This document shows, in pieces, positions 1-38,099 of a stretch of 64,000 nt of DNA. The translations under genes and the position numbers were made by a program. Location of the stretch: positions 62,248,001 to 62,312,000 of the forward strand of contig CM097885.1 in the NCBI GenBank assembly GCA_044892525.1, given 5' to 3'. Each line of letters begins with the position of its first letter. Positions within the stretch are counted from its first letter, which is position 1. The stretch comes from Schmidtea polychroa (taxonomy: Eukaryota). Below the pieces are notes generated by a model. That model had not been told where the DNA came from and did no database searches. It saw only the letters and a list, made by a program, of their open reading frames with translations.

Positions 1-3000
1 CACTACTCTCGCTTCGTACCTTTTCCGTTATCTCTTGGTTTATCTTGGTTACTAAGTCATCCACCGTACTCTGATTACTCATCTTTATTCGTCGTTTCTC
101 CTCGTTTGGTAACCATATGGTTATTTCTAATTTCTGCGGTTGCGTTTCTTTTAATCTTCCGTATTTGTGGATCAAATTTATGGTTCTCCAATCGCTCATC
201 CTGAGCAATTCTGTATCTCGTAATCGGCTCATTAGTTCATGCATAGTTGGGGTTCGTTTTGCTATGAGCAAATCCCAGTTGTCTTCAACTTGTTCTTGGA
301 TTTGTTTGATTAGTTTATCTAGATTCCGCCTTAAAGTGCATTGTTTTATTTGTTCCAATTTCAGCTTGATATTGAAATCGTATTCAGCCTTGGCGTCTTT
401 AGCCCATTCATGAACATTAGCTGGTTGCTTCTCTTTATGCAACTTCAATATTTGAGTTTCTCCTGGCCAGATCAATGCATCTATTAGGTGCATGTCTGGT
501 TTGATTTGTTCTCCTTGATATTGATACAGATATTCTTTCTTTCTTGAGTTACCCAAATGTTCTCTTATCCAATCGAAAAGATCGTCTGTAACTGTATTTT
601 TTATCCATATTCTCTCGAGTCCTTTACTCGTTCCGATTTTTATTACGTAGCGTGTTGTCTCCGCTTGTTTCATTTTTTCCATATACTTCTTTATTATCGC
701 TTTCTCCTCACTTGGTATTAAATCTTTTTCGTTTCTTTCCAGTTTCATTATCTTTTGTATGAAGCGTCTGTATGGTATGATGTCAATGAAATCCTGGTTT
801 CTTACCACCACTGGAAGTATTTCTTTTACTTGTTTTATCGCCTCTTCTTTTTCCTTTCTCAGTTTCATCTCGATATTCTCATCTTCACTTTCGCTTGCCA
901 CATCGCTTTCACTTTCATCCTCATCTTCTCCGATCTTTTTCTTTAGTTGTTCGATATTTTCATTTAACTGTAATATTTCTCCACTAAGGCTACTCACATA
1001 ATCCTCCTCGTCATCTGTTGACAATACCTTCTTTGTCGTCCTCATCATGTTAATTCGTAAATTTCTCATTCTTGATACTTTCTTGAGCTTTTTATTCTCA
1101 AATATCGTTAATTCTTCCGATTCTAATTCTTGTACCATTTCATGGGTTAAATGACTAGTTTGTTTCTCGTTTCCGTCATTTATCGCTTCTACTTCTGTTT
1201 TTGTTTTCTCATGTTCTCTTTCGATCTTATCTTTTATCTTTTTCCAAAATATTTTCTGGATTCTCTGATTTCCCTTTAGTGGTGTTGTTGGATTTTCCTT
1301 TTTATCTTCCGTAACCGTTTCTTTCGGCTTCTCTGGTTCGATCATAGGTACAACTCTTGGATTTTTACCATAATTGTAACAATATTGCTCCTTTATCTCT
1401 TTTACCATTCTCATCATATTTATTCGTAATGGTTGTTCTTGTCGCTGCTGAATTCGCTCTCTTTTTATTCTCTCTTCCTCAGCTTGTAGTCTCTGCCATT
1501 CTTGTGCATGTTGTTGTACTTCATAATCATTAAGATTTTCGGTGCTCCTCATCATGCGTATATTCTGAGTTTGTTGTGCTACTGGTTCTTGTCTCGGTCT
1601 CATCATTTGTTGCATCATCTGTTTCATTTGTGAAATTTCTTGCATCACGTTCATTTGCTTTCCTTCACTGGGGTTACTTTGTCGTTGCGGATTAGGTGCA
1701 TAATTATTGTTTCGTTGTGGTGGTCGTTGTTGTTGGCTCCTTTCTCGGCAATCTCTTGAGATGTGACCTGGCTGACCGCAGTTAAAGCATCCTCTCAACT
1801 GGCATATATTTTCCGTGTGTCCTCGTCGTCCACATCTATTACAATTTGCGTTTCGGTAACAATTTCTATCCCAATGTCCTGGTTTACCGCATGTTTGGCA
1901 TTGTTTGTTATCGTTCGTATTTCGTCGATTATTAAAATTATTTCCATTGTTCAGGTTGTTGCGTTCACTGTTATTCCCGTTTGATCGTCCTTGCGGTGGT
2001 TTGAAAATTTGATGCGCACCTGGTATAAACTGATTCATCTTCGGTTCATGATTGTTGTTATCTCCATTTTCCGTTTTCACCGTTGCTGATGCGATTCTTC
2101 CCTCCTCCTGTATGACATTCATTTGTGCCGGGAGGTGTAGTTCGCATCTTGTGGCCCAATCTATGGCCTCTTCTAGTGTTTTACACATCTGACATCCCAC
2201 CGAGGCTCTTACCTCTTCCCGGCGTAGTCCTTCTATGAGTTAACCAATTAGATTTTCCTCCGGCAAGTTTCCGTTCATGGCCTTCTTTGCCAATCTTCGC
2301 AATTCGCTTGCGTATAACGTTATTGATTCATTGGCTCTTTGTTTTCTACTCGCTAATTCTCCTAGGGCTTGATTTATTGGTTTGCTGGCCCCGAATGTTT
2401 TTCTCAAAAATGTTTTGATGCTTTCCCAATTGTCTAATTTCGTATTTCTTTCTTTTGCTTCTAGATACACTTCGAGTGCGCTATCGCACAAAAACAGAGG
2501 CATTCGTTTACTAATTGCTTCCGCTGTCCATCCGCACACATCGATATAGACTTCAAAATTTGTTATGAACGTTGCCAACTTGTTCGCATTCCCGTTAAAC
2601 GGTTCGCCTCTAAATTTTTCTTTATACTCGTCGGTTTTTACCACATTCATCATGACTGGTTCTTGTAACTCTATTGTTTCTTTTAAATTTTCCAGCGGTG
2701 TCGCTAAATTATGGACGGATAATTCTTCGGTTGACCCGGTTAGGTTGTTTGTTATATCGGATAGGCTTTCTCTGCTTCTAGATCGACTAGGGGTGTATCC
2801 GAGGTTTTCTTGGTCAAAGGTTGGTACTTGATTTGTTCTTTTTGCTCCTTGTGATCTTCCTCTTTGCTGTTTTATGGATCGTCCTCTTCTGAGCTGTTCT
2901 AGTTCGTCTCCTGAAATTAATACGTCTCTTGACTTACTTGAGGATCTGAGATTTAGTTTCTCCGTGATTTCTTCTTACGCCTCCTTATCGTCTCTTATGG

Positions 3001-3250
3001 ATTTCTCGGTAATTATCGGCTGCTGACTTGAGCGAATTCGGTTTTGTCGGTGTTCCGAGTCCTTGGCAATTGGTTGTTAGTGTTATGAGACGTCTTCCGT
3101 TCTTGGAATCTTCGGGTTGTGTTACTCCTACTGAGCGGGTTCTGGATTGGTTATTTCTAGTTGGTCGTTGATTTCTTCGAATTCCTTTGTGCAGGTTCTG
3201 GATTGGCTTGATTGACTGGATTGGTTTGATATCTAAAATGAAAAAATGAT
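1..3250 (-). pseudogene. gag: Ty3/gypsy-type gag polyprotein, interrupted by in-frame stops and running off the left window edge
   Basis: ORF 2240-2653 (FITNFEVYIDVCGW...LFLCDSALEVY...WESIKTFLRKTF...RKQRANESITLYASELRRLA) resembles a retrotransposon capsid domain. By manual translation the same frame continues past a TAA at 2240-2242 (LIG*LIEGLR) and stays open to position 1. Another in-frame TAA lies near 2975. The 5' boundary is approximate. Confidence 0.85.
1748..1900 (-). other. three tandem CCHC zinc knuckles (nucleocapsid)
   Basis: Manual translation gives CQTCGKPGHWDRNC, CNRCGRRGHTENIC and CFNCGQPGHISRDC, each CX2CX4HX4C. Confidence 0.92.
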
Positions 3251-3922
3251 CTCGTGTTGCATCTGCTCACACGACTTCATCATTCTTTCTTCAACATTCA
3301 AACACAGACACCGTTTAGGGCCTCTGTTATGCTTCTCTTTATTTCCCCATACAATTTCTCGTGGATTATAGTTACCCATCAACCCATAGTTTTCGTCGAT
3401 TTTAAATTATCTATTTGGGGTAGTAATAATTATCTATATGGTCGTATGAATTATCTATAATTATCATTTATAATATCGATAGGTCGTTCTCAGTTACTGC
3501 TTATCACCCCCCATATTCTCTTAATCCTTTTACGCGGTTCCGCTATTTTACTTAGTCTTCCGTCTCTGTTCCCCTTTACTCGGTTCTACTCTGAACCAAA
3601 AAAAATCAGATTCGTTTATCCGGTTTAAACCAAAAATTCTGTAGACTTTTGTCTACTTACTTGGGATCCCCTTTAATTAATTAATTACCTTCCTTTTTAC
3701 TCGTCATTTATTCCCACTTATTCTCTACTTTTACTATCTCCTCAATTCATTTTCCTTTTCTGATTCTCCTTTTCTACTAAAAGGGTTTTACTTTCATCTT
3801 CTACGAGCTCGTTTAATCCTTTCTAAATTCGACTTCTCGTATCCCAATTCAATTCGTTTCTAGCTAGATTAATATTCTATCTCATTATCAACTTAAATAT
3901 TATCCAATCATTTTCTAGGCCT

Positions 3923-4260
3923 TTACGACTGGCTGGCACTTTTCAACAGCTCAATCTTCTTCCTTCTGACCGGTTGGACTATTCGACAACTCGATCTTAC
4001 GACTGGCTGGCACTATTCAACAGCTCAATCTTCTTCCTTCTGACCGGTTGGACTATTCGACAACTCGATCTTACGACTGGCTGGCACTATTCAACAGCTC
4101 AATCTTCTTCCTTCTGACCGGTTGGACTATTCGACAACTCGATCTTACGACTGGCTGGCACTATTCAACAGCTCAATCTTCTTCCTCTCCAAACTGGCTG
4201 GACTTTTCACAGCTCAGTTCCAATTTCCCTGGCCGGCGGGACTATTCAACAGCTCGACCT
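3923..4260. repeat. 74-bp tandem repeat in the gag 5' leader (about 3.5 copies plus a degenerate tail)
   Basis: The unit TTACGACTGGCTGGCACTATTCAACAGCTCAATCTTCTTCCTTCTGACCGGTTGGACTATTCGACAACTCGATC starts at 3923, 3997, 4071 and 4145. Confidence 0.95.
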
Positions 4261-4346
4261 TAATATCTTCGACTCTGCATGCTTCTATCTTTTCTTTACC
4301 TTTATTCTAGACTGTCATCTCTCCTTTTATTTTTACTTTTTATTTG

Positions 4347-4366
4347 TCGATCTAATCTGTGCCACT
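4347..4366 (-). promoter_or_regulatory. candidate primer-binding site (CA-AG-TGG junction)
   Basis: The minus strand reads ...CATTCTCA|AG|TGGCACAGATTAGATCGAC, the usual LTR-end/spacer/TGG geometry upstream of gag. I could not assign a matching tRNA. Confidence 0.35.
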
Positions 4367-4841
4367 TGAGAATGTTTCCCCTTTCCCCCCTTGCTCAAAA
4401 CGCAAAACGATCGCATTGATCCATTTCTACATTGGTATGGTGATCAGTCATACCGCAGGAACTTTTCAATATTCGCGATGGTACCTCGCCTTACATCTCT
4501 TACTCGGGGTGATCGGTTATCCCTTCCCAACCGGTTTCCGTGTATCGTACCTCCCGAAGGTGGCTCGGTTTATTCCCCCTTTAATCCTATGTTGGGACTA
4601 GCTCCACTTTATTTTATTTGTTCAAATTAAATTTATAGATGCTCTCTCTCCATGATGAAAATTATCATAAAGTTACTGAATTCACAATAAAATGAACACG
4701 CAAAACATTCTATTCATTAGTTGGCTTAAATCACATGCAATATACAAATTTACTAGAAAATTGTTGATACATCAATTAAACATAAAGGATTTAGTCAAAT
4801 CGTCAATCAGATCAATTCTTTCACCGAGTGCTGCTCGCGTG

Positions 4842-5321
4842 TTAACTGAAGTAAATCGTGTGCTTCTCCTTTATTGCACATACACATAAAGAACAATGCG
4901 TTAAACTGACGGCGCATTCGTCGCAATGGCTAAGGTGTCCACAAGGTAGCATTAGAATTCTGGCAGGTCGCGTCTTACAAATGTTACAAGTTCTCAAGGC
5001 CGCTGCTTTTTCTATTATCGAGGTTCGTATTCTCTGAGATAGAGTTTTTACTTGTTCGCGTATTCTCACATATTCGAGGTTCAGAGCGGGGTCGTCGAGT
5101 CGTTGCTGCATCCATTGGTAATGGACAGACAAGTCGGTGTCGGTATTTGTTGACCCCAATCTGTCGGTTAGAAAGTTTTGTTTGGATATCAGCGGTGCGT
5201 TGTGGCGTTGTTGCTCTAGGGTGTCTATTTGTTGCAGTTTTTCTCTTAACGTCTTTATGGAATCGTTTTCTATGTCGACGAACCGGCTTAGTCGTTGTAG
5301 GTGTTGTCGGGCTCCTGACAT
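4842..5321 (-). CDS. coiled-coil plus C-terminal IAP-type RING finger protein (putative E3 ligase, no BIR domain)
   Basis: Intact 159-aa ORF ending CNICKTRPARILMLPCGHLSHCDECAVSLTHCSLCVCAIKEKHTIYFS, a C3HC4 RING at the extreme C-terminus as in IAP/MDM2/RNF34-type ligases. A TTTAG acceptor ends 2 nt before the ATG. Confidence 0.85.
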   Translation of the reverse strand: MSGARQHLQRLSRFVDIENDSIKTLREKLQQIDTLEQQRHNAPLISKQNFLTDRLGSTNTDTDLSVHYQWMQQRLDDPALNLEYVRIREQVKTLSQRIRTSIIEKAAALRTCNICKTRPARILMLPCGHLSHCDECAVSLTHCSLCVCAIKEKHTIYFS

Positions 5322-6283
5322 ATCTAAATAAGTATGTTGTCATTACTCGGTCTCACTTACAAAAATAAAAATAATATTATCGTGTTATAATCAATGTTCG
5401 TTTGGCTTTGTTCGCCATTGTTTCTAGTTTATGTATTTTATTCAATCTTTAATAATTCTTTTTAATTTAATTCATTTAAAATTAAACAAAATTAGTCAAT
5501 TCCCATTTTCTCTTCCCTTCATATTCAATCGCATTCATTCAAACTTATTTAGGTTCGTTTTTGTTCATAGCATGTTCTATTTTACGCAAAGACAGTTCGC
5601 ATCATCATCTTAATACATTATAATATCGATTCATTTCAGTCCCGATTCCCTTTTTTATTATAATTAATTAAATTGTTAGTCTAACACATCGTAATACAAT
5701 AATAGGCAATCAAACAATTCGAAATCAGATCCCGGCTGAGCCCCAAAAATCATGTTGGTATATGCGGGGAAAAAGAAATTTGTTGCACACATCATCATTT
5801 CACATCTCACATACCCTGCATCATTACTCCGCTCAGATACTCCCCATACATACACCAAATGATCATGTACATATTCCCACGCATGAGCCCGTGGTGATAT
5901 TCCACGTTGGTGCTGCTCACACGGGTTGGAAAAGGTTAGCAGGTGAGCCTCTGCCTTAAGACTACTCCTAACCCTTTCTCGATACGGGTTCTACGGTGCC
6001 TCAGAAGGTCTTACCCCGTCCCACATACACAATTCGGTCCGACCCTGGTCCAAGGGGACGACCTTGTATTATCACCTACATTCGACATCATCTTTCCACT
6101 CGTATCAACTTCGATATCTCACCTGTTAAAATCAATCATCAGAAACAATAAAAGATGTATTAACTTATAACAAATCATTACACGCAGAATAATCAAGAAC
6201 GGTTTTACATGTAAACATACAGCATTTATAAACACGCAAGTTCACTTAGGGACCATGCATAGAACAAGGCATCTTTGAATTGA

Positions 6284-7045
6284 TCAATCGAAGGGTTCTC
6301 CATCCGCAAGCATTGCGTCGATATCGACCGGCAGTCGTGGGTTAGAAATGTACTTGATGCCTTCTGCCGGTATTACACGAAAGATTTCCTTTGATGGGAT
6401 GGAATGGCTGGAGGATATTTCTCTTATGGTAGATTGAGCTACAGATAGTGACGCCTCGAGAGCAGCCATCGCATCTCGGCGTTTCTGATTTTTCTCGGCT
6501 CGGGTTGGCCGTTTCCGTTTGCGAGACGACGGGGGATTGTCAGTGTGCGGGGTGACGACGGTTGCCCCCGAAATCGGAGCCAAGATGGGCTCGGTAGGTC
6601 CACCTACCAAGGGTTGAGAACCCGATAAGATTGGAGCTGGAATGGGCGGTAGGCACGATCCATGCCCTTGGCAGCTCGTAGCAGTCGGTTCGGATACTTG
6701 ATGATGAAGAGGGAAAACGTTCATTTTCTCTATGACGGGGAATTCCCGTACCCGCTTGGCGAGTTCTGCCTCCGTATAAACCTTGTGGAGGGCTTCTGAT
6801 TGGGTTTTGATTGTAAGCCGTTGGCATCGGCTTTCCTCCAGCAAGCTATCTCTACAATGTTCTAACCGGAGGATTTTCTTTCGTTCCTCCTTCATTTGTG
6901 GCGGGGAGAACCACGTACCCTCATAGAGGTCAATTCTTTTCTTTAGAGCCCCGATGTATAGATGGAGCTGCGCGATATCTGCGTTTTTATCTGCGCAGGA
7001 GAAACATGGGCGAAGGGTTTTCTCAGCAGTTGTAGGAGTAGTCAT
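6284..7045 (-). CDS. ORF-X copy 1: unknown protein with CxxC, coiled coil, Pro-rich linker and basic motif
   Basis: Intact 253-aa ORF. Homologous to the decayed copies at 14035-14891 and 15890-16407 (shared CFSCADKN, IGALKK, P[P/A]QMKE, EH[C/Y]RDS, QSEALHKVY, NVF motifs). An AG acceptor abuts the ATG. Confidence 0.8.
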   Translation of the reverse strand: MTTPTTAEKTLRPCFSCADKNADIAQLHLYIGALKKRIDLYEGTWFSPPQMKEERKKILRLEHCRDSLLEESRCQRLTIKTQSEALHKVYTEAELAKRVREFPVIEKMNVFPLHHQVSEPTATSCQGHGSCLPPIPAPILSGSQPLVGGPTEPILAPISGATVVTPHTDNPPSSRKRKRPTRAEKNQKRRDAMAALEASLSVAQSTIREISSSHSIPSKEIFRVIPAEGIKYISNPRLPVDIDAMLADGEPFD

Positions 7046-9419
7046 CTAAAGAATGAGAAGTCCTTTATTTACATCATTAAAAATCCTTTCTACTATTTAT
7101 TTTCTTTTTATCGTGAGCTTTATCCTACCACATATGCATACAATCAGGATGGCCCCCCCACATCCATACCTTTGACATCACTTAACTCATCCAAACCGTA
7201 AACCTTCAAATCAACTCATCACATCGTTCGTAATGAAGAGAAAATGAGAACCATCACACGTTATTTCTCTACCCATATTGATATTGTACCTAGGTTCCTG
7301 GGTCGACAGTTATCATCTAATCGCAATAAGTTACTCCTTACCACTAATATATTTTTTCACTTTTATTTATTATGACCTATTGAAGGTGGGTCTACTCCCT
7401 GGTTTTTATGGCTTATTGAGTTATGCCTGCTTTAATTTAAAAGAAGTAGTTCCATACTGTTGATGCACTTTGCGCTGTATTAAGTTAAAACGAATTTGTT
7501 AAAAATTATTATTAGTATTAATTTCCCTCATAAATTATAATTTAATTATTTAAATTTTCGCATTTTCTGTTGTCATAACGACGCATATCGGTATGTAGTG
7601 GTGTACTGGTTTCAGACTCTACCTGATGTGCGCTAATGTGTATTATCTCGTTTTACTCAATTATCGCTGTCCTCTCTTAACAAATCCTAGACATTGTGTC
7701 TGTTAGTGTGCCTTGATCTCGTCGCTTATTTATGCATGCCTACTGACACATTCTACTATGACGCAATGATGATGTCGACTCACTCACGTCCCATGTATTA
7801 GTGGATTTATCTGTGTGTGGGTTTGGGTCTGCTTATCTCAGTTATAACATTTTTAGCAGATGGGCTAGACGGATGGAAGATAGTGAGTCAGGCTTATGGA
7901 AGTAACGATTGCTATGATTTCAAGATTTCCCAAATCTGTTATCGGGTCAAAATGGATTTAACTCCTATCTCTCTCGTGAATGTTGACTATTCTCACAAAC
8001 CTAATCGTCTCATCGATTTGGCGCATGTCGTTCCACAATCGAACCGCTGGAATATTTTATCTACGCTACTTGCCTCTCTGCAATAGTCGTTTCTCGATCA
8101 GATGGAAAATTTATCGATAATTTGTTCGAAATGGTCGATGATAATTTCCTTTAGGACTGAAGTAAGTGCTTATCATTAATTAGAACTCGGCTGTTTACTT
8201 TCCTGTCAGGGCGAACCTTATCGATGACAGTAGCTAATCGAAGGTTGATAACTAAGTCTCCTACTCGTCAAATGACCTATCACCGCGATGGGTTGAATCG
8301 CTAACGTTCTCTTAATTTATCAATTCTTGGAAATACAGAATGCTCCAGATTTTTATCATTCATCAAGAAACGAAAATGGACGTTAGAATTATCAGTGAGG
8401 TTCGAGAATTTCATCACCCTCAAGAATAGTCGGTATTCACATTCTGACGAAAAGAAGTAACTTAGCTCTGAATTGAATATGGCCGAACTCAAACTCGGAT
8501 TAAATCTCGAAAAATGTCGTCGATCTCCTAGAATTTTCGGTCAGTACGTTGTCGGCATCGAAACAGTATCGCTCAGAAGTTTCCTCAATAGAAAGCTTTC
8601 GACGGCTAATTTTATAGATAGCACTCGATGAAAAGATCATTGACTCGATTCGTTTTCTCTCACAGGGTTTCCTCACCCCTCACAACCCACCCAAGGACAG
8701 TACGCATTTCTGCCTACTGCCCTTGGACCGTCGTGAAGGACAACTCGACCCGACTTATCTCAAATCCTTCTCCAATAAATGCACAATCAATAAATTCATA
8801 TTACTGTCAAACAAATATGGGAATAATGAAATTAAAAGAAAAATCAAATAAATAAATGTTTACCTGGCGGCCACGCCATCTGGATTCCGAGTATGATGAC
8901 TCTTACTAACGTAGGTTTTTATACTCCTTTGTAATCATTGTAATACTAATATCCATGTAGACACTTGGCTGGTTCTGTCAATACAATTTCTGGGTATCCG
9001 CATTCATAAGCTCTCTCTGAAATGCATACGTAATTTAGCCGCATCATACCCGAACTCCAAAGGACGTCGTCGCCAGCATCATAGAGAGAAAGCAACATCT
9101 TTTGGTTTTAAATATAGATTTTATTGAAACATAAAACGTCTTTTGATATTAAATTCATAGTAAACATTAAAATTATCATACTAAAATTCAAAACATAATT
9201 TACCAAAATTCTCCGAAGGTGTTAGGATTGAAATCAAAGTTTTGTCAAATTTTTCCTTAGTTAGACTGGTTCTTCTCAACTGGATTCGATCTCGACTATT
9301 ATTTGCCTCTAATTACTATTTGTTATGTCCAAGTATGAATATCGTTCGTAAGTCTGTGCTCGTGAGTGGTTCCTAGTCCTGTAGAGTTTCGGGTTAGAAT
9401 GATAATTTTTAAATAAATT

Positions 9420-9500
9420 TTACCTGTAGAGTTTCGGGTTAGAATGATACTCTACAGAGTTTTGTTGCTCTTTATATATTATTTTCCGTCCAATCAGGAC
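9420..9500 (-). promoter_or_regulatory. LTR-type Pol II promoter (CCAAT, TATA) followed by a splice donor
   Basis: The minus strand reads GATTGG...TATATAAA, then CAG|GTAAAA about 50 nt downstream. The same CCAATCAG/TATA pairing recurs at 10679-10711 and 27590-27623, and a TATA plus donor occurs at 17594-17638. Confidence 0.6.
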
Positions 9501-10494
9501 ACACCTTGCTTGTAATTTTGTTATTTATTATTATTTTATGTTTTTCTTATCGTAGTATATTATATTTTAATGACCCTACCTATTTCTATTATTGTTTTAT
9601 TTATTTTCCTATTTTTTATTATTTTTCTCCTATTTTTCTGTGGTTTTATTGCTATTTTATTGTAACTTCATTTTTTTGTTTTAATTATCCTTATGGATGA
9701 TTTTATTTTTATTTTGTTTTCCTTTAATTTTCATTTGTTTTTCTTAGATTTTGTGCCATTTTATTTTTCCTTTACTGTTATGCTCATTGGGTGCCTTCCT
9801 TTTTGTCTTATTTCCCCTTTACAGGTTTTGTTATTTTATTTAGTTATTCTTGTCTCTTTATGGATGTTTAATTTGTTTCTTCCTATATTTCTCGTAATTT
9901 TTATATGTTTTTATTTTATTTACTCTATCTCTTCCTGGGTTCGTTTTTCCAACACCTTCAGAGCTTGTTCGTTTTTCCAACACCTTCAGAGCTTGGCCCA
10001 ACAATAAGAACCGAGATAGTGTCTTCCTCAGTCACTGAGAAGCATATGCCTTAGCTTCCTGTTAATTTAGGATCCATTACTACAATCTATATACTACTAT
10101 TTCACAAATTTTAAGTCACCTTCAGTGACGGACCCGTGAGGAAGCCCCCACATTACGGCCCGAATCAACTGCGTGATTGAAAAACTCCATGTCCACCGGC
10201 TGAGCTCCGGAGGGCACCTCACACCATGACATGGGGTATCTCAACTCCACGTTTCTCAACAGTCAAAAATATTTAGTTCAATAAATAAAGCATAAAAATC
10301 TGAATAAAAATCATTTATTAGTTCTAATGATATCCAAACATCTAAAACTCTAAATTCATTAAAATTGAAAATGAAGGGATCAAATGCAGAGCCGTTCGTT
10401 TACGATAAAGATTTTAATTACAAATTAACCTTCATAATCATTTTTAACTTAAAAGAAAATTCTAAATAAAAGTTCTTCTTACCAATATTATCGA

Positions 10495-11060
10495 TGTTGA
10501 GGCTGAGTCAAAAATTTATTGGTCGTTTTCTGAAACTGATCTGTTCGATTTCAAATCCTGAATATTTCTCAAATGTCGAATTCTGATGCTAATGATTCCT
10601 TGAGTGATCTCTGTAAGTCGCTGATGGTATCTGTAAAGTGTTTTGAATTAACGGTAAGTTTATGATTTTTGTGTTTGCTTATATAGTAATTTTTGATGTG
10701 TGCGGACCAATCAGAATTGAGTACCGCTTGTTTTCTTAATTTAATTTACTTTTTCCTGTTTTTTGGTTATTTTTCCTTATTTTCTTTATTTCTTTATTTA
10801 TTTTTTTTTATATTTTCTATTTATTTCCTTAATTTCCTCACTATTTATTGAATTTTACATCATTTATTCGTCAACTTATTGTCCTATTTTAATTTTCTTA
10901 TTTTTATTTTTTGTTTTAATTCTTATTTCCTAATTATTGTTTTCCTTATATCCTATTCTATTTTATTCTTAACTTCGTTTATTTTATTTTTATTTTCTTT
11001 AACATCCTATTTTCTTACTTTCCTAATTTTCAAAAATTAAGTTTTCGACTCAGCCCAACA
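10495..11060 (-). mobile_element. solo LTR-like element (~566 bp)
   Basis: Inverted ends TGTTGAGGCTGAGTCAAAA / TTTTCGACTCAGCCCAACA, an A-rich U3-like tract, and CCAAT and TATA boxes. No clear TSD. Confidence 0.6.
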
Positions 11061-11326
11061 TTACTAATGATAGAAGTTAAGATAAAAGAAGAAAAATGAA
11101 TTTGAAAATAAAATAATTTATTCATTATCACACCACCATTTTTCGATAGTTTAAATCTAGCTTATTTTTGGCGATCCTCCAATTCTGACATCAATTACAT
11201 GGGTAATCAAATATAATTCAAATAAATCCCCATTGCCTCCAGATTTCGACTATTTCTTGTTTCTAGTGCCAAGAGCACCAAATCCTTGAGCTCTTCTGGT
11301 TACAGTAATACCATATTGATCAAAGC

Positions 11327-13242
11327 ATGATCAAAAGAAGAAATACATTCATATACATTGTATATCTGTGTTTGATATGCCGGATGAATACTACTATATG
11401 TAAAGAATATAATCTGAAGCGTCATTATCAATCACAGCATGCAGACAAATATTCGAAATATAATGGTGAGTCGAGAATCGTCATACTTGAAAATTTAAAA
11501 AAACAATTTAAGAAGCAAACATCAATTATCCCCCTAGCATGTAAGGCTCAGGATGCATATGTTTATGCTTCTTATGCAGTTGCGAAAGAAATTGCCAAAG
11601 CCAAAAAGCCATTTACTGATGGTGAAATTATTAAGAAGTGTGCAATTAAAATGGTTCAAGCATTTGGAGATGATAAAATGGCAAAACAGTTCGAGTCAGT
11701 TTCTCTTTCTCACCAAACCGTTGCAAGACGAATCTTAAATATGGACACCTTAGTTGAAAAATTAGCCGACATAGTAAAAAATTTTGTATATATTTTTCAA
11801 TTGCGCTTGATGAAAGCACCGACATATCTCATACCAGCCAAATGCTGATTTTTGTACGAACAGTGGATGGTGATTTTAATGTTTCGGAGGAGTTACTGAA
11901 ATTGGCTTCCCTACATTCAACAACAAAAGGTGTAGATATTTATGAGGAACTCAAAAATGTTGTTTGCATGTATGGTGGTTTTGAAAAATGCACTGCCATT
12001 GTAACTGATGGAGGAAAATCAATGGTCGGGAAAAATATAGGACTCGCTGGACTGCTAAAACAAAATGGTATTAATTGTCAAATGTTGCATTGCATTATTC
12101 ACCAGCACGTTTTATGTGGAAACATTATGGGATTAAGTTGCACGATGAGTACAATTATTAAAATAACAAATGCAATAAGAGGCGGAAACCGTGCACTCAT
12201 TCATCGTAAATTCAAACAATTTCTTGAAGATTTTGATGCCCAATATGGTGATCTACTTTTGCATAGCCAAGTTCGCTGGTTAAGTGCAGGGAAATGCCTT
12301 AAAAGATTTTTTCAACTTCGTAAAGAAATTAAACTTTTTCTTATGGAAACAGAATTGGATTCGTCATTTATAGCCTGTTTTAATGAAAAACATTTTTAAT
12401 TTCATTAGCATTTTTAGCAGATATTACCGAATATTTGAATGTTTTGAACAAAAACTTGCAAGGCAAAGACCAAAACATAAGTCATCTGGTAAGCCATATC
12501 ATCGGATTCCGCAATAAGTTACGTTTTCTTCGGTCGCATTTTATTAACAACAATTTGGTGCACTTCGAGTGTTGTTATGAACTTGCTATCGAAATGCAAG
12601 AAATCGGTCAACAATTAAACATGAAAGATTATGTACCCGTGTTGGACAAATTGGTTGAAGATTTTGATGCCAAATTTTCTGATTTTGATGCAATTAAACC
12701 AGAACTAAAATTATTTAATAATCCGACTACCATCGACGTTGAAGAAACCGATATTAAATATCAAATGGAATTATGTGAATTGCAAGCTGACGAATTTTTT
12801 AAATCAAGGCTGGAGACAGGGGTAAATTTATTCAAAATGTTTCCAAACGACAAATATCCAAAATTGCGCGATTTGGGCTTAAAATTAATTTCTATGTTTG
12901 GTAGTACATATATTTGTGAACGAGCATTTTCTGACATGAAATATATCAAATCTTAATATAGAAATTCAATGACCGACAAAACACTAAAAGAAATTTTAAG
13001 AATTTCTTCAACTAAAATTGATATAAATATCGAAGTTCTTGTAGCTGCCCATATAAATAAGCAGTTTTCACATTAATAAATATTATGTTAATATTTTTTT
13101 TCTTTTTTTTCTTGAACTATGAACTAATAAAATACTAAAAAAAATTATAAATGACTTTTAATTAAAATTTATAGTATATGGCCCGCCAAACCTACAAAAA
13201 GATAAAATTGGCACACATGTACAGAAAAGTTATACAGCGCTG
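11327..13242 (+). mobile_element. hAT transposon (Buster/SPIN/GTF2IRD2-like), frameshifted transposase
   Basis: ORFs 11327-11848, 11842-12399 and 12435-12956 contain CKEYNLKRHY, (frameshifted) FSIALDESTD, TDGGKSMVG, HCIIHQ, VRWLS and GSTYICERAFS. The 3' end is ...TATACAGCGCTG at 13242. The 5' TIR was not found. Confidence 0.9.
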
Positions 13243-14034
13243 ATATCCAACAATAAGTTAAATTCATTTACTTATATTACAAGTAAAACTGGAAAGATTT
13301 CAGGTTCATGTATGGAATTAGTGATATGGGTTTTTATTTGACCGGTTCAGATCTTACTACTTGAGTACTTGAATATTATATAGGTTTCTGGAAACATATT
13401 TCTAGACAATTTCTAAGTAGTTGTAAATTGAAGGTTATTATGACTGGCATCGAAATTTATTTCCCGAGAGTTATATTTTATTGATTTTGCGAATTTGCAG
13501 ATATACATTTTTATCTAAGTTTTCTAAAGATTAACCACATTAGCTAGCGTGAATTTGGTGTTTATAATATCCATAAATCAAACAATTGTCAAATTACTTA
13601 TTTCAAAACAACACTAGGGGTGTGTCCTGCTTAAAATCGTGAATAGGGGAAATTATGGTTGACTCAACCCGACTCCTTTTAGACGCCAAGGTGACTATTG
13701 TTATGACTACTCATGTGCCCATGGCGACGACATATGTTGGTACTGCACATAGTAGCTGAGGACCTATGAACAGGTGAGCTTCTGCGTTAAAACTACTCTT
13801 CATAGTTTCTTCATTTACGGGTTCAAGAATGCCGATAGAAGGGCTTACATCCTCATGGACTGGTTCGGTAATTACGTAAAGAATCTTTTGTTAAATCTTG
13901 GTCCAAGGGGTGTGTCCTTTATTCTCATACAGATCGATTAATCCCAAAAAGAAACTCATACGGATCAAATAACTCAAACAAAAATAAGACAATTAACATA
14001 AGGTAAAGTTCTATTTAATACACTGACACTTCCA

Positions 14035-14891
14035 TTATGATCTATCTTTGTACATAACTAAGTTCGATTCGAAGATATTAAAGAAAACTAGAAGTGATGG
14101 AGTTAAGGTTTCTCCAGCGTAACCTTTGTCTGCGATCCAACCCTCGTCATTTCCATCCCGTAAAAGAAACTCAAGGTCCGACATTAATTGGGCATCATAG
14201 GGCCAAGGGGTGGTTGTTGAAGGTATCACATGAAACGAAGGTACTTGCAGAGTCGTCGGCATCGCTGTCAAAGGTGGAACCTTTGGCGTGATCCAGAATA
14301 ACGTAGCTTTTGTGGCTGCCTTTCCGTCGCGTCTGCGGTTCGATTTCTCGGCGCGAGTCAAACGTTTTCTCTTTGGTCGATAGTTGGAGTTGACCTCATT
14401 GGAAGAAATCGGGTTTCCTGAAGGTGGAGTTATAAGTGTGATTGTTTTGATTGGAGCCACACTGGAACCAACATATACAACTTCCGGTGACAGAGGTGAA
14501 AGTTCTGTCCCGTGATTAGCACAAGAAGATTTTGAAACCTGTGGAAGATCCTTGTACATATGGTGTATGGGAAACACATTCGTTTCGTCGAGAACTGGGC
14601 GTTCAGAAATCCGTTTCTTAATTTCGGACTCATTATATATCCGATGGAGGTTTACCGACTGCGACTTTATAGTGATGCGCAGATTGCGGTTCTCCTCTAA
14701 AATACTATCCCGACAGTGCTCGAGTCTTAGCACTTTTCGATTTACTTCCTTCATTTGGGCCGGGGGAAACAATGATCAATCTTCTTTTTTAATGCCCCTA
14801 TCTCCATTTGGCCCTTGTTGATGGTATCGTTTTTGTCCGCACAGGAGAAACACGGCTTTAAATTTGATGTAATTGGGTTTGGTTTAGACAT
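14035..14891 (-). pseudogene. ORF-X copy 2 (frameshift near 14775)
   Basis: From the ATG at 14891: MSKPNPITSNLKPCFSCADKNDTINKGQMEIGALKKKID, then a small deletion shifts into ORF 14035-14772 (PAQMKEVNRKVLRLEHCRDSILEE...RPKRKRLTRAEKSNRRRD). Confidence 0.8.
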
Positions 14892-15889
14892 ATCGCTGAA
14901 AAGAAATGAGGTTATACACCAGCAACTTCTCTACCAAAAATAGAAATCAATTAAATAGACACTGTTCCTTGAGCCACTTTATGCACTGGTGTTGAGAGTT
15001 TATTCGGACTAATGTTTAATACAAAAGAAACCTGACCCGGGGAAGGTGGATGAACCTTTCAATCATAAGTTTAATTATTATCCGAACTTTATCATTATTA
15101 TTTAAAATCATAATCGAATATTATTAAGCGTTCACTACCAATCAATAATTAAAAATCGTTATCAATTATTATTGAAAAAATCGTCATCAATTATTAACTA
15201 AAACCATTATCAATGCTTATTTAAATATCCCTGTCAATTGTGAATCAAAAATCATTTCCCATAACTATTTGAAATTCATTCTCAGTTGCTATTTAGAAAT
15301 CATTATTAATTATTATTTAAAAAATCTCTGTTATCATTAAGTTTATCCTTACTGTTACTCATGGTATTTCGGTAGTATCATTACTCTTTCTGCTGGCCTC
15401 TTCATTTTTGTTAATCTCCATCATTAATTTCGTAATCGCGATTATATTTATCTAAAATTCACGTTACTGACTCACCACTAACATCGTCTTTTTCACCTTA
15501 TTCATTACTAGGATTTAAAATCATTTTCATCATCGCTACTGATGTCATTTTTATCAATAATTATGAACATTAGTATTATTATAGTTATTCCGATGATTAA
15601 AATATGTAAATGTTAACATGGTTCCCTAAATTTCACTAATCTTATCGCCATTCCCGGCCATTGATGCATGTGCCGTTGTTGCCTGTATTAAAATGATTTT
15701 ATGGACAGTGTTGTTATGATTTCTATTACTCAATACTCTGATGTTCGTCATTAATATTTTCCCAGCTGTCTTGCCATCGTCACTCTGGTTGGTATTTTCT
15801 ACTAGCAATTCCTGATTTTGTTTACGTGTTGGGTAATCAATTAGGTAAACAAGCGTCCACTCGCTACCAGGGGATGATGGTCAAATCAA

Positions 15890-16407
15890 AACAAACATGT
15901 ACTATTTAGTCGACCTCAAATCAAGCACCGGAGGAGGGATCGGATTCAAGGTAACGATAGGCCTTGGGACCGCTTGGCTGACTCCAGTGATGCGAACGTC
16001 AGATATCGTGGGAGATGGATGTCGTCCACGCAACTTTTACTGGCCTCATCTCCATATTGATTTGGGTTCGCTGGCTGATCATGGCCCAAAAATACATTGT
16101 GTTCTTTCGAGATTGGTATAGAGGCTATCTTCTTTGTGATCGTTGCCTGCACGTAGACCTTGTGCAGGGCCTCAGACTGCTCCTTGACTAGCAGTTGCAA
16201 CGAGCATCTCGATCAGACTATCGCGATAGTGCTCGGCTCGCGACAACTTCATCCACATTTCTTTCATTTGAGCGGGCGTGAAATATGCCCCTTCGAGATA
16301 GTCGTTCTTCTTCAGCAGTCCTATCTGGGTCTGCAGCGTTTTAATAATCGCGTTCTTATCGGCGCACATGGCCGAAGAAGAGTCGTAGGTGTTGGGGTTT
16401 TCGACAT
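15890..16407 (-). pseudogene. ORF-X copy 3 (two frameshifts, shorter)
   Basis: From the ATG at 16407: MSKTPTPTTLLRPC, a shift to ADKNAIIK...QIGLLKK...TPAQMKE...AEHYRDSLIE, and a shift to LLVKEQSEALHKVY...EHNVF. The 3' boundary is approximate. Confidence 0.75.
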
Positions 16408-17589
16408 TTCTAAAGTAAGTCAGTGGTAATAGCAAATTTATGTAACGAAATTATAGGTAATGAAATTATATAATATCGGATTGCTCTTTATAATCGTCGA
16501 TAATAGATAGAGATAAAGAAGACTAATTCCCCTCACATTCGCACCCGAGAGACCTCGCATTGTTAACGATATCAGCCTTAGGCTCCTTTTACCATAATAA
16601 AAGCATTATTTATCTGAGTTTATATTTTTATATGTTTGGATGAATTATGTGATTAGACCCTTCATAAATGTTTAAATAACGAATAAAATTTACCCTTGAA
16701 ATTATTAAAATAAATTACCTAATTTAATCATTCAAATATTCAAATAAATTAGATAACTTCATCCTTCCTAAATTTTTCATCTAAAATTATATCGTCCAAT
16801 CATTCTTAAAATTTCAAATAAATTACATCCATCAATCATTCAAAAAAATTCAAATAAAACTGTGTCGTTCCATCGCCCTTAAAGATATTCTAATAAAATT
16901 GTATCATTCAATCGCCGTTAAGAATATAAAAAATTTATATCATACAATCAAAAATTTGTGACATGAGCTACTGACAGTCACTCAGGTAGATTATGATGCA
17001 TTTGGTGGTTTGTGCCTTATCGCTTCGTTTCAACACTGGTATTACCTAATTGCCATGTGAAATGGGTGTCTGCGAGTCTAATCCAATGCAAATCAACACG
17101 TCTAATCATTGGAATTTATTGTCATACTCCGGATGTGTGTCGTCCATGATTGCGACTGCAGATAATACGATCTATTCTACAGTACATTTCGCGTTATTTA
17201 CAGGGTCGTCTACGAATTTATCGATGGCATGTAAAAGTACTTCTGGTCGCGGCTGAGTTCTCAAGAATCTCGTGTAGGAGGAGCGTGTTCTTAACTTGGA
17301 TCGATTATCGTTGGATAGAATTTCATTCGACAAGGTGTAAATCCGATGTGCAATAGGGAATTTCCAGATCAAACCAAATTTCAACTATGACTTTCTCTGA
17401 ACTCATTTCGTGAAAATTTAACGTTCGAATGCCATACATAGAGATGATGTCGAAAATTTGTGAACAAATGCATCGCGTATCCTGAAGTAAATTGATTATT
17501 GAATTTCCCGGTTTTCACCAAAACTCTATTCACGAAGCTATTTCCTATAGTCGACCTTGCATGATCAAAGCGCAAAAATTGTAATCTAT

Positions 17590-17960
17590 CTTACCTAAAT
17601 TTTTTGTAAAATTTTTATTTCAATGTCTTGCTTATATAGCTTATTGTGGAATTTGCGGACCGCTCAGAATCGAGGTTCCGCAAAATTAATTAATTTAATT
17701 AAAATTTATATTTTGTAATTTTTCTTGTCTTTTAGGTTTTTCTTAAAATTGTATTAATTTTCTTTATAATTTTTTATATTAATTGCATATTTCTAGTGTC
17801 GTTTTCCTACTTTTATGTGTACTTGATGTTTTTGCTTCCTTTAATTTATTGTTTTAATTCTATGTTTTGTTTTTCCTCTCTTTTATTCAGTTAATATACT
17901 TATTTATATTTATTTTTTAATTTGTTTTTGATTTTTGATGGTATTTTTTGTCGTTTCCTA
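17590..17960 (-). promoter_or_regulatory. LTR-like U3/promoter with canonical splice donor upstream of ORF-X copies 3 and 2
   Basis: An A-rich tract (17700-17960), TATATAA at 17632-17638 and AG|GTAAG at 17594/17595 on the minus strand. Confidence 0.55.
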
Positions 17961-17969
17961 TTGCCTCGT

Positions 17970-20900
17970 TGTGCCAGGATAAAAGTATGAGGATCAATCA
18001 AGATCAGTGTCAATAAATGTGATTGGGTTCAGGATCATTGTCGATAGATAAGAAAACGCAAAGTCACAATTTAAGTCAAAGCTTAAACACATTAAGTTCC
18101 GAGGGGGGGGATCAATCGGTTGCAGGATCGGGATCCAGACAGGTACTGCTTGTGGCACGTATTGGTGGCAGGTCAAGCTTGTGATTAGTTCCGATGGTGG
18201 GGGCCGGTCCTTGGGGTAGTTTCCATCTGCAGCTCGAGCGAGTAACAGGTCCCGGTGCCTGGTCCAGGAGGCGGTTTCCATGTGCCGGTGCCGGTTCGAG
18301 AGTGTGAGAGGTCCCGGTGACAGGTGGCCGATCCTGGAGGCAGTCTGGAGGTTCGGTTCCAGCGAGATGGTTCCGGTGGATGGTTCCGTATTGGCTCTAA
18401 TATAAATTATGGGGCCTGGAATACCTTTCAAAGGGATAGGGCAAAAATATATACTACAATGATAAATAAGATATTGATTAATAATAGTAATAGCGAGTGA
18501 TAATAATGAGCTATAGAAAAAATATATGAAAAATTATATATAAAAATAAATATATGTTGAGAGGTATAAGGATATGGTTATAGGGGGATGGGTTTCTCAT
18601 TGCGATGAATCCTTGTATGTATGTTCCCTATAGATGTTATAGCTGCTCTGAATCGCGGCGGTGCATGCCTTATTCGCGAGTCTCTTAATTTCAGACTTAG
18701 AAAGACCAATTTTCTTTAGGATTGCATCGTTCAGCTTATCCCAAGAACATAAGGTACCTAGTACAAGGGCAGAAAGAGAGGTCTTACATTTATGTAGATG
18801 TCCGATTTCAATGGCGATGTCCTTATATTTTTCGAAGTTTTTTGTCACGAGCATTGTTGAAGTTGGCAGCGGATTCATAGGGCACCTTGATGTCGAGGAG
18901 ATGCAAGTTGCAGTTTCTGCTAGACTGAATGAGGAGGTCTGGTATAAGCTTCGATACCCCGTCCGGGGGCCTTTCTACGTCTACCAGAAAGTTGAGGGAC
19001 AGGAGTATATCAGATACGGTCTGTAGGACATTGGAGTGTTTATTGCGATGGGCGTTGAATTTTGCAGCACAGTGGTTGAAGATATGCGCCTGGGTTTCAG
19101 GGTGTGTGTGGCAGTGTCGACAAGTGGTTGACTTATTGGTCTTAAGTCGATGGAGAGAATAGTTTAGCTTAAGCAGGTTGTTCCTTGCTTTAATAAGAAA
19201 GAGGTATTGGGCATCGGACAGAGTGTCAGTTTGAATGAAAAAGGCCACTGTGCTGCTTTCACTGATTGCTTTTGCAATGTAACCTTGGCATCTCATCCGG
19301 ATCCACCTTTCAGCATGGATCAGGCCAATTATGGAGTGGAGTTCTGAGGACGTGTCATGGATGTTCTCAGTGTCGAAGTAGGTGAGACGTTCGCGATATT
19401 TTACCTCTAGCTGCAGGGAGTTTTCAATGTATTTGATTTTCGCGGAGATATCGTATTTGAGGAGCAGTCTAGTGGACGATTTACAGAATTTTGAAAAGAA
19501 GGTAGGAAATTGTTTAGATGTTTCCCTATTCAGCCACGCCAGGGCAGCATTGAAGTTGCTTTGGCCCCTAGCCTGTGCGAGTTTCGAGGTGACAAGGTTA
19601 CGGAAACTTAGATCGCAGGAGGTGAGGGATCTGATCATGAACGATGCTCTGGATATGGTATTCATCTATCGCCGAAGTGAGTCCCATCCCCCCAATTTTA
19701 TAGAGGCATAAGTGAAATTGTTGTTTAATTGCATAATTTTATCCCCCATCGTGGTTCGCAAAAATGTCTTTAAGTTTTTGGTCAAAGCCCAGGTATTGCG
19801 CGTCCCCTCTCCTAAGGCGTTTCGAGTCTAACGTCATTTGTCTGATTTCGCAGTTTCGGAAAGTGAAGATGAGGCGGGAGTGTATAAAGATCTTGTAGGA
19901 CATTAACTTCTGTGCCGGGTGCAGGTAGGATTGGAAGATAAGTTTTGTGTTGTCAAAGCGTTGTCAAGTCTTTCCTCGATGTTGTGTTTATTTTTGTGCG
20001 CGAAGTCGACGCCGAGATAACGGTAGAAATTTGAGTCGTCGATAACTGGTAATCTTTCGCCATAGAGAGTGACGGGGGTGTGTGTCGAAAATGTTGAGCG
20101 AGAAGTAGCCAGATTTAGATGGTTTAAACCGAAGATTAACCTTTTGTGCCAGTCGCAGTCTCAGCTAGTGCAGCGGTAATGGAGGAGAAGGAGTCGGAGA
20201 TAAAGACAATGTCATCAACATATGCAATGATGCTTATATTGTGTTCGTGAAGAAAGAAAAAGTGTTCGCGTAGTATAGTTCTTAAGATGAAGTCAATCGA
20301 AAGGCAGAAGAGGGTCATAGAGAGTGGGCAACCTCGCTTTACTCCTTTGACAATTGGCACCGAGGTGGACAATTCTTCTTCGCACTCGAAGATGGTGTTG
20401 ACATTGGAATACATATCCATGATGAGGTTGATGGTTTGTTGATGAAGGCTCATGTGTGTCAGAGTGTGCCAGATAAGATCATGGGGTAAGGAGCCAAAAG
20501 CATCAGTGATATCGAGACAAATGATATGGAGTTCCGTTTTATTGCGGACAGAGAAGTCTTTGATGAGGTAAAGAGTTAGGTTATGTTCGACGCAGCCATC
20601 GGGGGTGCCAATGGCTTTTTGGTTAGTGTTAAGTAGGTGACCTTGCCTGATCCAGGACAAGATAGATGATTAAGGACAGAGAAGAAGATACGGTATGCAG
20701 TGTTCATGACAGAGATAGGGTGCCACGAGCTAGCCTCATGGCTCGTTTCATGTTTCCCTTGTTTGAGTATCAGTTTGGTCCGAAAAGTCTTCCAGCTGGG
20801 AGGATATATCGAGGCGGAAAGTACGTTATTACAGATAGCAAGAAGGGGTTCCATATTGGGGCATATCTTTTTCCAGTCGGATAAGGTGATCTTGTCGATG

Positions 20901-25179: not shown

Positions 25180-25430
25180 ATTATAACTCAGATTAGATTT
25201 ATAATATTTATTAACATTATTTATATTAAGGTTAACATGATTCAAATTATCATTTTGTTTTAGATTATGATTTGAATTTTAATTACAATTTAACTTTTGT
25301 TTAAGATTTCTTATGTCATTGTTTGGCTTTCTTTTAAATTTATAAAAATTAGTATTTTCAACAACTTGGTTATATTGATCATAATTCATTGTGGCGAAAC
25401 CCTTGGTGATAATTGGTAGATTTTTATCTG

Positions 25431-26364
25431 TTAATTTACCCGAGGGGTCAAAATCACTTCGGTCTTTGTAATTCGAGTGGTCGATAATATTATAGTGGTT
25501 GTAATGTGGACTTGACCAATATTACTTATATCATTAGATGGCCTTGATTTGATCATATCAGCATATGTCGCCTTCGGAGAATTAGATTTGGTGTCTTCAT
25601 AAATCGGGTCTCTAGTTTGTGCGAGTGAACAGTTTGGGTCCCTGTCTAGATCACATTCATAAATAGAAGCAGTGCTTAGTTTATTGGTGGAAAGTTTGTT
25701 ATCATAAGAGTTGGCATGTTTTCGCATATAAGCATTAAAAGGCATAGTATTAATGGATCTATTATTTTTTCTGTCATTAGATTGATCAATTAAATTACCA
25801 TGCATATCGATCTTTCGATCACGATTTTTTTGCAAGGTTCCATCTGTCCATACATGTACCAATTCGATCTGTGACAGCCTTCTCATTTGCATTTTCGTTT
25901 GGGGGATTTCTTTTCAACAATACACTTTCGATGTATCTGCTTGTCTTCGAGTTCGGCCATCCGACAAACTAACGAATTCTGTTCCAGCTCCTGCAAGCCT
26001 GTGCATAGTCGAGATCCTTATCTGTGGAGAATAGCATTCCATATATACATTCCAAATCGGAACGTATCAATTTAGGCTTACTGTTTTGGATTAATATATT
26101 AAACAGAATTCCGGATCTCCTATCCATTTCGGATGATCTTTTCATCGTCCCTCGGGTGATGCCGTCAATATAAATGGCCGTCGAGGAAGATGGTTGCCAC
26201 AACTGGGACCTGAGCCTGCTCCAGCTGCATCGTAAGTCATCATCAGGTTTCACTCCGGGTCCTATATCAACAAATTTCGTTAATTTATTGATATCATTAA
26301 GGCATATTTCTGCCGAGTGCTGACGAATGTTATATGAAGTTGAAATTTTTTCGATCATGTTCAT
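25431..26364 (-). pseudogene. decayed unknown ORF with three C-x-W helical repeats
   Basis: ORF 25969-26364 continues in frame past TAG as FVGWPNSKTSRYIESVLLKR...GTCMDRWNLAKK, and a frameshift then joins ORF 25431-25892. It lies downstream of the LTR-like promoter at 27590. Confidence 0.5.
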
Positions 26365-32658: not shown

Positions 32659-32739
32659 TCTCCATTTTTTTCAATTTTGACCCCATTTTTACTAATAATA
32701 AATTATAAAAGTTTTTATTTTAATAAAATTTTTATTATT

Positions 32740-38097: not shown

Positions 38098-38099
38098 AT

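Follow-up and report, generated by a model that had tools for sequence, protein, structure and literature searches.

In the genome of Schmidtea polychroa, a stretch of 64,000 nucleotides (GenBank assembly GCA_044892525.1, contig CM097885.1, positions 62,248,001 to 62,312,000 of the forward strand; G000:C1:62248001-62312000 in our own naming; hereafter, the window) raises the question of whether a retrotransposon can carry a gene inside its long terminal repeats (LTRs), and of how such an LTR would be transcribed, spliced and copied back into DNA. An earlier note on the window had proposed a giant LTR at 4367..10084, with accessory genes between its own promoter and polyA signal. Here, the window was analysed together with the 40 kb to its left and with the 781-Mb genome. 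The element is a Burro-like giant Ty3/gypsy retrotransposon, of a known kind. We consider it probable, from the comparisons set out below, that an open reading frame (ORF), ORF-X, lies in the predicted unique 5' region (U5) of its LTRs, and that a short first intron is removed from the genomic RNA at its 5' end, to be restored at minus-strand transfer.

The limits of the element follow from the alignment of its two LTRs (coordinates are positions in the window unless a contig is named):

10004..10007, minus strand: 4-bp target-site duplication (TSD), TTAT; the second copy stands directly after the 3' LTR
5753..10003, minus strand: 5' LTR, TGTTGG...CCAACA, 4251 bp, by alignment to its own 3' LTR
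5729..5745, minus strand: tRNA-Pro primer-binding site, complementary to the 3' end of this genome's tRNA-Pro genes

The matching 3' LTR that the earlier note had expected left of the window was found there, at G000:C1:62227406-62231658, 26.3 kb leftward of the LTR in the window; it is a multi-kb repeat and carries ORF-X. Only positions 81-4336 of the proposed LTR (window 10004-5749) match it, at 99.46%, and both proposed ends are wrong: the supposed start, TGTAGTAATG at 10084, falls within an older LTR (start 11060) that was the insertion target of the element, and the supposed end, CATTCTCA/AG-TGG at 4367, belongs to the internal leader. With only 14 substitutions and 8 gap columns between the 5' and 3' LTRs, the insertion is young. 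The whole element measures 30.6 kb, with TTAT on both flanks, and the spacing within LTR pairs is about 26.3 kb throughout the sampled family members. A TG...CA LTR pair, a TSD and a tRNA primer site, as expected of Ty3/gypsy elements, are thus all present. Downstream of the 5' LTR comes TGATTTT and then the primer site, which has one G fewer in the window copy than in most family copies. The 3' LTRs are preceded by ...CCCCGGAGTGATT, and a clear purine tract was not seen there. In every 3' LTR examined (L037 and L054 among them), the DNA on the upstream flank has no polypurine tract and has a conserved hairpin-like stretch ending GGAGTGATT; TGATT also stands directly downstream of the 5' LTR. 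Together, these features suggest that plus-strand priming may be unusual. An initial tRNA probe was discarded, as its matches were the primer sites of other elements and not tRNA genes. The tRNA-Pro probe has 1552 matches genome-wide, and the tRNA-Pro(TGG) genes form a very large tandem array with a 475-bp period (G000:C1:130.90-130.95 Mb and beyond).

Within the LTR, the following features bear on where the RNA starts, is spliced and ends:

9471..9496, minus strand: inverted CCAAT box and TATA box, kept in a 46-LTR alignment and in families with 39% ORF-X identity
9424..9448, minus strand: E1a, the predicted first exon from the predicted cap site (first T of the TATA box +30)
9379..9423, minus strand: 45-nt GT..AG mini-intron; its last 25 nt (E1b, 9403-9379) are an exact copy of E1a, on which minus-strand transfer is predicted to land
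9202..9203, minus strand: a second GT of donor type, some 80 nt ahead of the polyA signal; a donor-like site occurs at +199 to +274 in 18/19 E1 types
9120..9125, minus strand: AATAAA followed by a T/GT-rich tract, the predicted polyA signal at the border of the repeated region (R) and U5 (15/15 groups, 59/59 LTRs)
8858..8879, minus strand: mini-exon of the earlier note, judged by the 46-LTR alignment and subfamily comparison
6284..7045, minus strand: ORF-X, 253 amino acids, directly behind a YAG acceptor, by ORF call, protein search and alignments

The promoter landmarks had been placed correctly or nearly so (CCAAT-type box at 9486-9496, TATA from 9478), and the first splice donor, with GT at 9423, is present and conserved. 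Families with 38-40% identity in ORF-X and 44% in the RING ORF (a second, RING-encoding ORF; see below) keep the same order: the LTR start is followed by CCAAT, TATA and the donor, ORF-X comes about 2.2 kb further on, and some 550 bp behind it stand CCAACA, the primer site and then the RING ORF. An AG immediately precedes the ORF-X ATG in 51/53 copies. AATAAA is found at +240..+390 from the predicted start (at about 320 nt) in all of the 59 LTRs with both ends found, a count from which 32 LTRs with a pattern-missed end were left out; other 150-nt windows have it in at most 6/15 groups. Because the only conserved AATAAA is upstream of ORF-X, the predicted lengths are about 300 nt for R and about 3.3 kb for U5, with ORF-X inside the latter. 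This goes against the R region of about 4.8 kb, holding the accessory genes, that had been proposed; the AATAAA near 4570-4620 that was taken for the polyA signal of the LTR does exist, at 4613-4618, and is internal, past the RING ORF. As for the mini-exon, ATGGCGTGGCCGCCAG followed by GTAAAC (8879-8858), its letters are present and a GTAA donor-like site is kept at that place or 4 nt away in most subfamilies, but its ATG is absent from 19/46 LTRs. A second TATA near 6230, which would have given a short R just before U5, is not conserved and was ruled out. Rfam gave no match at E<=1 in 4300-18000. No joint at a predicted splice site was seen among 15 of the 27 joints listed for contig runs X6, X5, X7 and X2 (of 12 runs; 4290-10100), which is not evidence either way; contig run X6 has coverage in each of the 30 bins, as does X2, a DNA-like run.

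It could be argued that R is long, i.e., that the RNA starts at 9448 and is polyadenylated past ORF-X, for example at an AATA(C/T)A near 6162, which would put ORF-X in a 3.3-kb R and make solo LTRs complete cassettes. AATA(C/T)A with a T/GT-rich sequence is indeed kept at about 6162 in most subfamilies, and the upstream AATAAA, lying just past the donor, could be permanently suppressed. However, canonical AATAAA is conserved only at the upstream position, and 40/53 LTRs have no AATAAA or ATTAAA past the stop codon of ORF-X. Moreover, early strand transfer over a 3.3-kb R would be expected often to bypass the cap and to blur the junction described next, which is sharp. We regard a long R as quite unlikely.

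A striking property of the LTR with its short predicted R is the repetition of its first exon. In 94 LTRs (77 elements), E1a, measured from the predicted start to the donor (23-27 nt), is found again as the closing bases of a GT..AG intron of 44-52 nt; these LTRs were left from 103 promoter matches after removal of seven without a donor and of two other or spurious promoters. The two copies are identical in 91/94 LTRs, with 18 sequence types, and among the set-aside promoters L132 has this repeat too, with a single mismatch. Where a variant is confined to one element, both E1 copies of both its LTRs have it (L099/L100 and L105/L106). For counts per element, the 17 partner LTRs and two mismatched elements were subtracted from the 94 LTRs, giving a set of 75 elements, in 65 of which the repeat begins 30 nt past the first T of the TATA box. 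In this set the base 5' of E1a is nearly invariant (T 73, C 2) and that 5' of E1b is not (T 28, G 26, C 15, A 6); within subfamilies, heterozygosity is 0.56 at the base before E1b versus 0.00 before E1a and at the donor. G occupies the position before E1b in 26/75 elements, as against 8.4% in nine neighbouring positions (a fourfold excess), and does so in 11/18 types. The E1b junction is common to both LTRs in 17/17 pairs and was therefore fixed before integration. Three copies of E1 were found in none of 96 LTRs; six family LTRs have a single E1 copy or have lost the intron precisely. The hypervariable, G-rich base before E1b would fit a copied cap.

The same base could also mark an ordinary border between the unique 3' region (U3) and R, if the RNA started at E1b and no splicing took part in replication; E1a would then stay identical through slippage or gene conversion, or because selection acts on an initiator or protein-binding site that is present twice. 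A variable, G-rich base is generally expected at the RNA 5' end at any U3/R border, and template slippage can homogenise direct repeats. A start at E1b accounts for the variable base but not for the co-variation, in which element-private variants appear in both copies at once, and the TATA spacing suits E1a, not E1b. Slippage would also predict three-copy intermediates, of which there are none, and in 7/75 elements the identity reaches back 2-8 nt beyond +1, which looks like the copying of alternative starts of E1a. We therefore give a start at E1b little credence.

Splicing at the 5' end and rebuilding of the intron at strand transfer would proceed as follows. The capped genomic RNA would start at E1a (9448), and the 45-nt intron would be removed at the RNA 5' end, whereas the 3' copy would mostly retain it. 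Starting at the primer site, reverse transcriptase would copy about 3.65 kb, comprising U5 with ORF-X, R and E1a. Reverse transcriptases can add a cap-templated base at the end of the complementary DNA (cDNA), and the strong-stop cDNA would often gain a base opposite the cap in this way. It could then pair in register with E1b and R at the unspliced 3' end, from where synthesis would continue across what remains of the intron and on into E1a and U3. In each cycle E1a would thus overwrite E1b, the intron and U3 would be copied back, and an end-of-template error would be left just before E1b. The donor upstream of the polyA signal may suppress that signal at the 5' LTR, in the fashion of foamy viruses, and may also feed the acceptors before ORF-X and the RING ORF. 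Taken as a whole, a clade that replicates via RNA spliced only at its 5' end, via a 3.65-kb gene-carrying strong-stop cDNA and via an intron regenerated in every cycle, with hundreds of solo LTRs supplying a regulator in trans, is a picture that we put forward tentatively.

The regulator in question would be ORF-X. In the predicted model (pTM, the predicted template modelling score, 0.25), a helical hairpin (residues 17-101) is followed by a disordered linker, a helix after a basic motif and a short acidic C-terminal helix. The basic motif has 9-10 Arg or Lys per 17 residues in all 23 ORF-X copies, and up to 12 Arg in relatives. A profile search brought up 16 proteins (P0001-P0016; best E 3e-15); one distant relative has a sub-threshold match to Pfam REV (E 0.0013), and several relatives have very Arg-rich motifs. 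Most of the 16 join the ORF-X domain to unrelated host proteins (transporters, enzymes and channels); these fusions are probably gene-model chimeras, possibly LTR-driven fusion transcripts. A word search of 5.8 billion proteins and a search of metagenome contigs gave no match to ORF-X, and neither did the atlas, where the best score was 0.84. The element must export a 27-kb intron-retaining RNA while also making spliced mRNAs and therefore needs an export route. ORF-X may be a nuclear RNA-binding regulator, most likely an exporter of intron-retaining genomic RNA in the manner of Rev or CERV (see below), a role that we assign with considerable reserve; that it is a transactivator, with a basic region and an acidic tail, appears somewhat unlikely. 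A candidate RNA element for ORF-X binding lies in the LTR:

5850..6065, minus strand: most conserved block of the LTR, with hairpins and compensatory changes (column conservation 0.96 at 6003-5904)

In this structured block (6065-5850), 7/66 base pairs change on both sides, with a single-sequence folding z of only -1.38.

Several points weigh against the scheme of a rebuilt intron and an LTR-encoded regulator. The start site, all splices and the polyA site are predictions from sequence alone, and genome probes for the exon 1-to-ORF-X and donor 2-to-ORF-X junctions and for a polyadenylated R end found no copy. The elements are related, so that the E1 counts are not independent and the nominal P value overstates the excess of G; the loss of the intron in six LTRs is equally explicable by slippage between direct repeats. 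The test of recombination breakpoints is weak, with five discordant pairs at the U3/R junction, three in U3 and 0-1 elsewhere, all from four LTRs. A strong-stop cDNA of 3.65 kb that reaches the cap in most cycles would far exceed retroviral values. The step that makes ORF-X a regulator is itself weak: ORF-X has no Pfam, PDB sequence or Foldseek fold match, the model is poor, and a leucine-rich export-signal pattern occurs in 9/23 copies, a chance level, since 41% of shuffled tails match too.

Is ORF-X maintained in the LTRs that carry it? The claim that a cargo gene sits within the LTR has held up: ORF-X is open in both LTRs of the window element and is found in solo LTRs as well. In a protein search of the genome, in which 150 of 7147 candidates were scored, nearly all copies were full length and nine had an internal stop. 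The 40 top-scoring loci comprise 26 solo LTRs with a 4-bp TSD, eight 3' LTRs, one 5' LTR and five loci without a recognisable start, so that solo copies with short TSDs, as foreseen in the earlier note, do exist; 17 of 20 further singleton loci are also solos. These samples were picked by ORF-X protein score and are biased towards intact ORFs. Among the 26 solos, 21 pass the ORF detector (>=245 amino acids), two have an internal stop and three were missed by the detector yet are open in the protein search. When 40 loci were picked instead by similarity in non-coding U5, ORF-X was uninterrupted in 29, had a stop in five, matched partially in two and had no listed match in four. The LTR-end motif occurs 367 times genome-wide (control, 2), and at 81 of these places the primer-site spacer comes next; at least about 205 LTR ends lie outside 5'/3' pairs, and there are about 2.5 solos per full element. 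Solo LTRs are what recombination has left behind; ORF-X would stay expressible in them, for which the weaker AATA(C/T)A near 6162 may serve. That each is a self-contained expression cassette does not follow, given the 40/53 LTRs with neither canonical signal past ORF-X, and solos do not spread cargo without gag-pol, because they have no primer site and cannot move without a full element.

The ratio of non-synonymous to synonymous substitution rates (dN/dS) of ORF-X against the window copy is 0.07-0.25 in 31/33 comparisons, the others being the 3' LTR (three changes) and one saturated pair. Between the LTRs of one element, ORF-X has eight synonymous and 14 non-synonymous changes (17 pairs), not distinguishable from the neutral ratio of about 5:17. 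Post-insertion differences thus fit neutrality, and the comparisons of coding sequence therefore show purifying selection on ORF-X, in LTRs and solos, for replicating lineages only. That ORF-X in solos is a host-useful, independently selected cargo cassette spreading through them is highly improbable: the abundance of unpaired LTR ends, the singleton changes in solos (dN/dS 0.26) and the predicted proteins that fuse the ORF-X domain to host proteins would agree with it, but differences within elements cannot be told from neutral ones, solo singletons include changes from unsampled replicating lineages, the loci were sampled according to protein score, the primer site is missing from solos, and chimeric gene models may account for the fused proteins. 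Two chimeric LTRs (L021 and L022) have a promoter half 90-94% like the window copy and an ORF-X from a subfamily of about 74% identity. Tandem arrays with shared LTRs, in which three to four ORF-X copies recur at a regular 26-33 kb, were seen at G000:C2:107320771-107377825, C1:72.65-72.70 Mb and C1:145.06-145.16 Mb.

The internal region of the element, which begins in the window behind the primer site, contains:

4842..5321, minus strand: RING ORF, 159 amino acids, with a C-terminal RING of the inhibitor of apoptosis (IAP) type (PF13920, E 1.7e-8)
4613..4618, minus strand: internal AATAAA past the RING ORF; AATAAA lies <=300 nt from the RING stop in 25/25 copies
3923..4261, minus strand: 74-bp tandem repeats in the leader, by repeat search and alignment
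1..2974, minus strand: start of the gag-env-pol polyprotein frame (gag, PF03732 and PF00098)

The earlier note had put the RING ORF inside the LTR; it is internal, downstream of the primer site and present once per element. Its top PDB matches are the RINGs of cIAP1/2 and XIAP (E about 1e-8), and it had no match in the word search of 5.8 billion proteins. TAG plus two nucleotides stands upstream of its ATG in 25/25 copies and is acceptor-like. ORF-X and the RING ORF are likely both expressed from spliced mRNAs of the single LTR promoter, because acceptors precede both ATGs and AATAAA follows the RING stop; the internal AATAAA at 4613-4618 is the candidate end of these mRNAs. The leader repeats and gag are where they had been reported, and the giant LTR of a Burro-like element is borne out by the 30.6-kb length, the 4.25-kb LTRs and the layout of the polyprotein. 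The polyprotein frame of the window element has two in-frame stops, one in the window and one to its left. A tandem copy on contig C2 has an open frame of 4731 amino acids with Gag, CCHC, a viral fusion-glycoprotein domain, protease (PR), reverse transcriptase (RT), RNase H (RH), integrase (IN) and ankyrin repeats, the env-like and ankyrin parts being supported by matches to PF24664 and Ank; the order PR-RT-RH-IN is given by RVP at 596-687, RVT_1 at 909-1067, RNase H at 1130-1259 and integrase at 1367-1539. Downstream of pol, the window's own element has a RING-MATH ORF. Searches with Pfam and with phmmer against PDB sequences, one of which listed the best 60 of its 205 matches, gave no BIR, BCL2, ubiquitin-like or dUTPase domain; in the published work these had been called with HHpred.

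The remainder of the window holds older LTRs of the same clade and unrelated elements:

10008..11060, minus strand: 5' part of the older same-clade solo LTR that hosts the insertion, by promoter and ORF-X comparison
13600..17700, minus strand: relics of older same-clade LTRs, with a promoter at 17665 and broken ORF-X at 16366-16009 and 14891-14149

The broken ORF-X and the end of the host LTR lie left of the 3' LTR, and its TSD is GTAA. The further ORF-X copies behind similar promoters that had been noticed at 13-18 kb do belong to the same clade; they are broken relics of older LTRs. Young elements often lie inside or beside older LTRs of their clade (window 10004-11060, L036, L132 and the C2 copy at 107377825). 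A fragmented Spin-doc/hAT-type transposase (PF18658; 11327-12956, plus strand) adjoins the older LTR, and a fragmented non-LTR retrotransposon with zf-RVT lies at 18600-22800 (minus strand). Remnants of hAT-type transposases (DUF659, DUF4371) are found at 23605-24974 and 62682-64000 (both plus strand). The stretch 25400-27950 (minus strand) is also A-rich; behind its CCAAT and TATA (about 27624-27590) come ORF fragments that do not resemble ORF-X, and it may be what is left of an LTR from yet another family. The interval 30266-38099 is an element of 7.8 kb whose long terminal inverted repeats are 90-98% complementary and which has several ORFs without a Pfam match, and a 199-residue ORF at 50189-50788 (minus strand) has a sub-threshold eIF4E match (E 3.8e-5).

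An intron spliced from the RNA that is copied is normally lost by RNA-copied elements, and the layout of E1a and E1b would be a simple way round this loss. The cap-like G and the overwritten repeat would form a countable genomic record that maps the start of the RNA without RNA data. With a gene in U5, the first product of cDNA synthesis would measure about 3.65 kb, and it would be clear why every solo keeps a potentially expressible nuclear regulator. The sag gene of mouse mammary tumour virus (MMTV) is positioned in U3, whereas ORF-X lies in the predicted U5, and the two proteins are unrelated. Both are protein-coding genes duplicated in both LTRs; sag, an LTR-associated gene, and U3 promoters are mentioned in PMC12789967.

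No description of a rebuilt intron, of a gene-bearing U5 or of a Burro LTR gene was found in the literature searched, mostly titles and abstract openings; the primary Burro paper and Repbase lay outside that search and may describe an LTR ORF. Burro LTRs are said, in the work of Grohme from 2018, to be about 5 kb long, possibly with an ORF inside. Burro/GYPSM1 elements of planarians are described as giant and gypsy-like, >30 kb long, with multi-kb LTRs, a polyprotein of about 5000 amino acids, an env-like domain between Gag and protease, ankyrin repeats, and MATH, BIR, BCL2, ubiquitin-like and dUTPase motifs (from the passages on them in PMC6431247); Burro elements are reported, in brief, to be abundant and active in planarian stem cells (PMC6884822). 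The present family is likened to them by description, not by sequence: it shares with them a length of about 30 kb, one very long polyprotein (Gag, CCHC, env-like, PR-RT-RH-IN and ankyrin) and accessory ORFs linked to ubiquitination, here RING-MATH and the IAP-type RING. It differs in that MATH is found in the separate RING-MATH ORF downstream of pol, and the LTR gene, the U3/R/U5 layout and the repeated first exon go without mention in those same passages (PMC6431247). Plant Ogre elements, as outlined there, also combine multi-kb LTRs (1.9-6.5 kb) with extra ORFs, but these ORFs are in the internal region, and the polyprotein is without env-like or ankyrin parts (PMC6431247).

In Cer1 of C. 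elegans, a Ty3/gypsy element primed by tRNA-Pro, the accessory protein CERV is made from a spliced mRNA and exports the unspliced genomic RNA, according to the summary in PMC10309623. ORF-X has no sequence or fold match to known proteins and is set beside CERV, and beside Rev of human immunodeficiency virus (HIV), by description only: a predicted splice acceptor lies before it, and the protein has a basic motif and a coiled region. In foamy virus, a splice donor in R lies upstream of the polyA signal in both LTRs, and at the 5' LTR the signal is silenced through binding of U1; the abstract of that study describes neither a U5 gene nor an intron rebuilt at strand transfer (PMC3694450). The likeness lies in the layout alone: as read from its sequence, the LTR in the window has a donor-like site before the predicted polyA signal.

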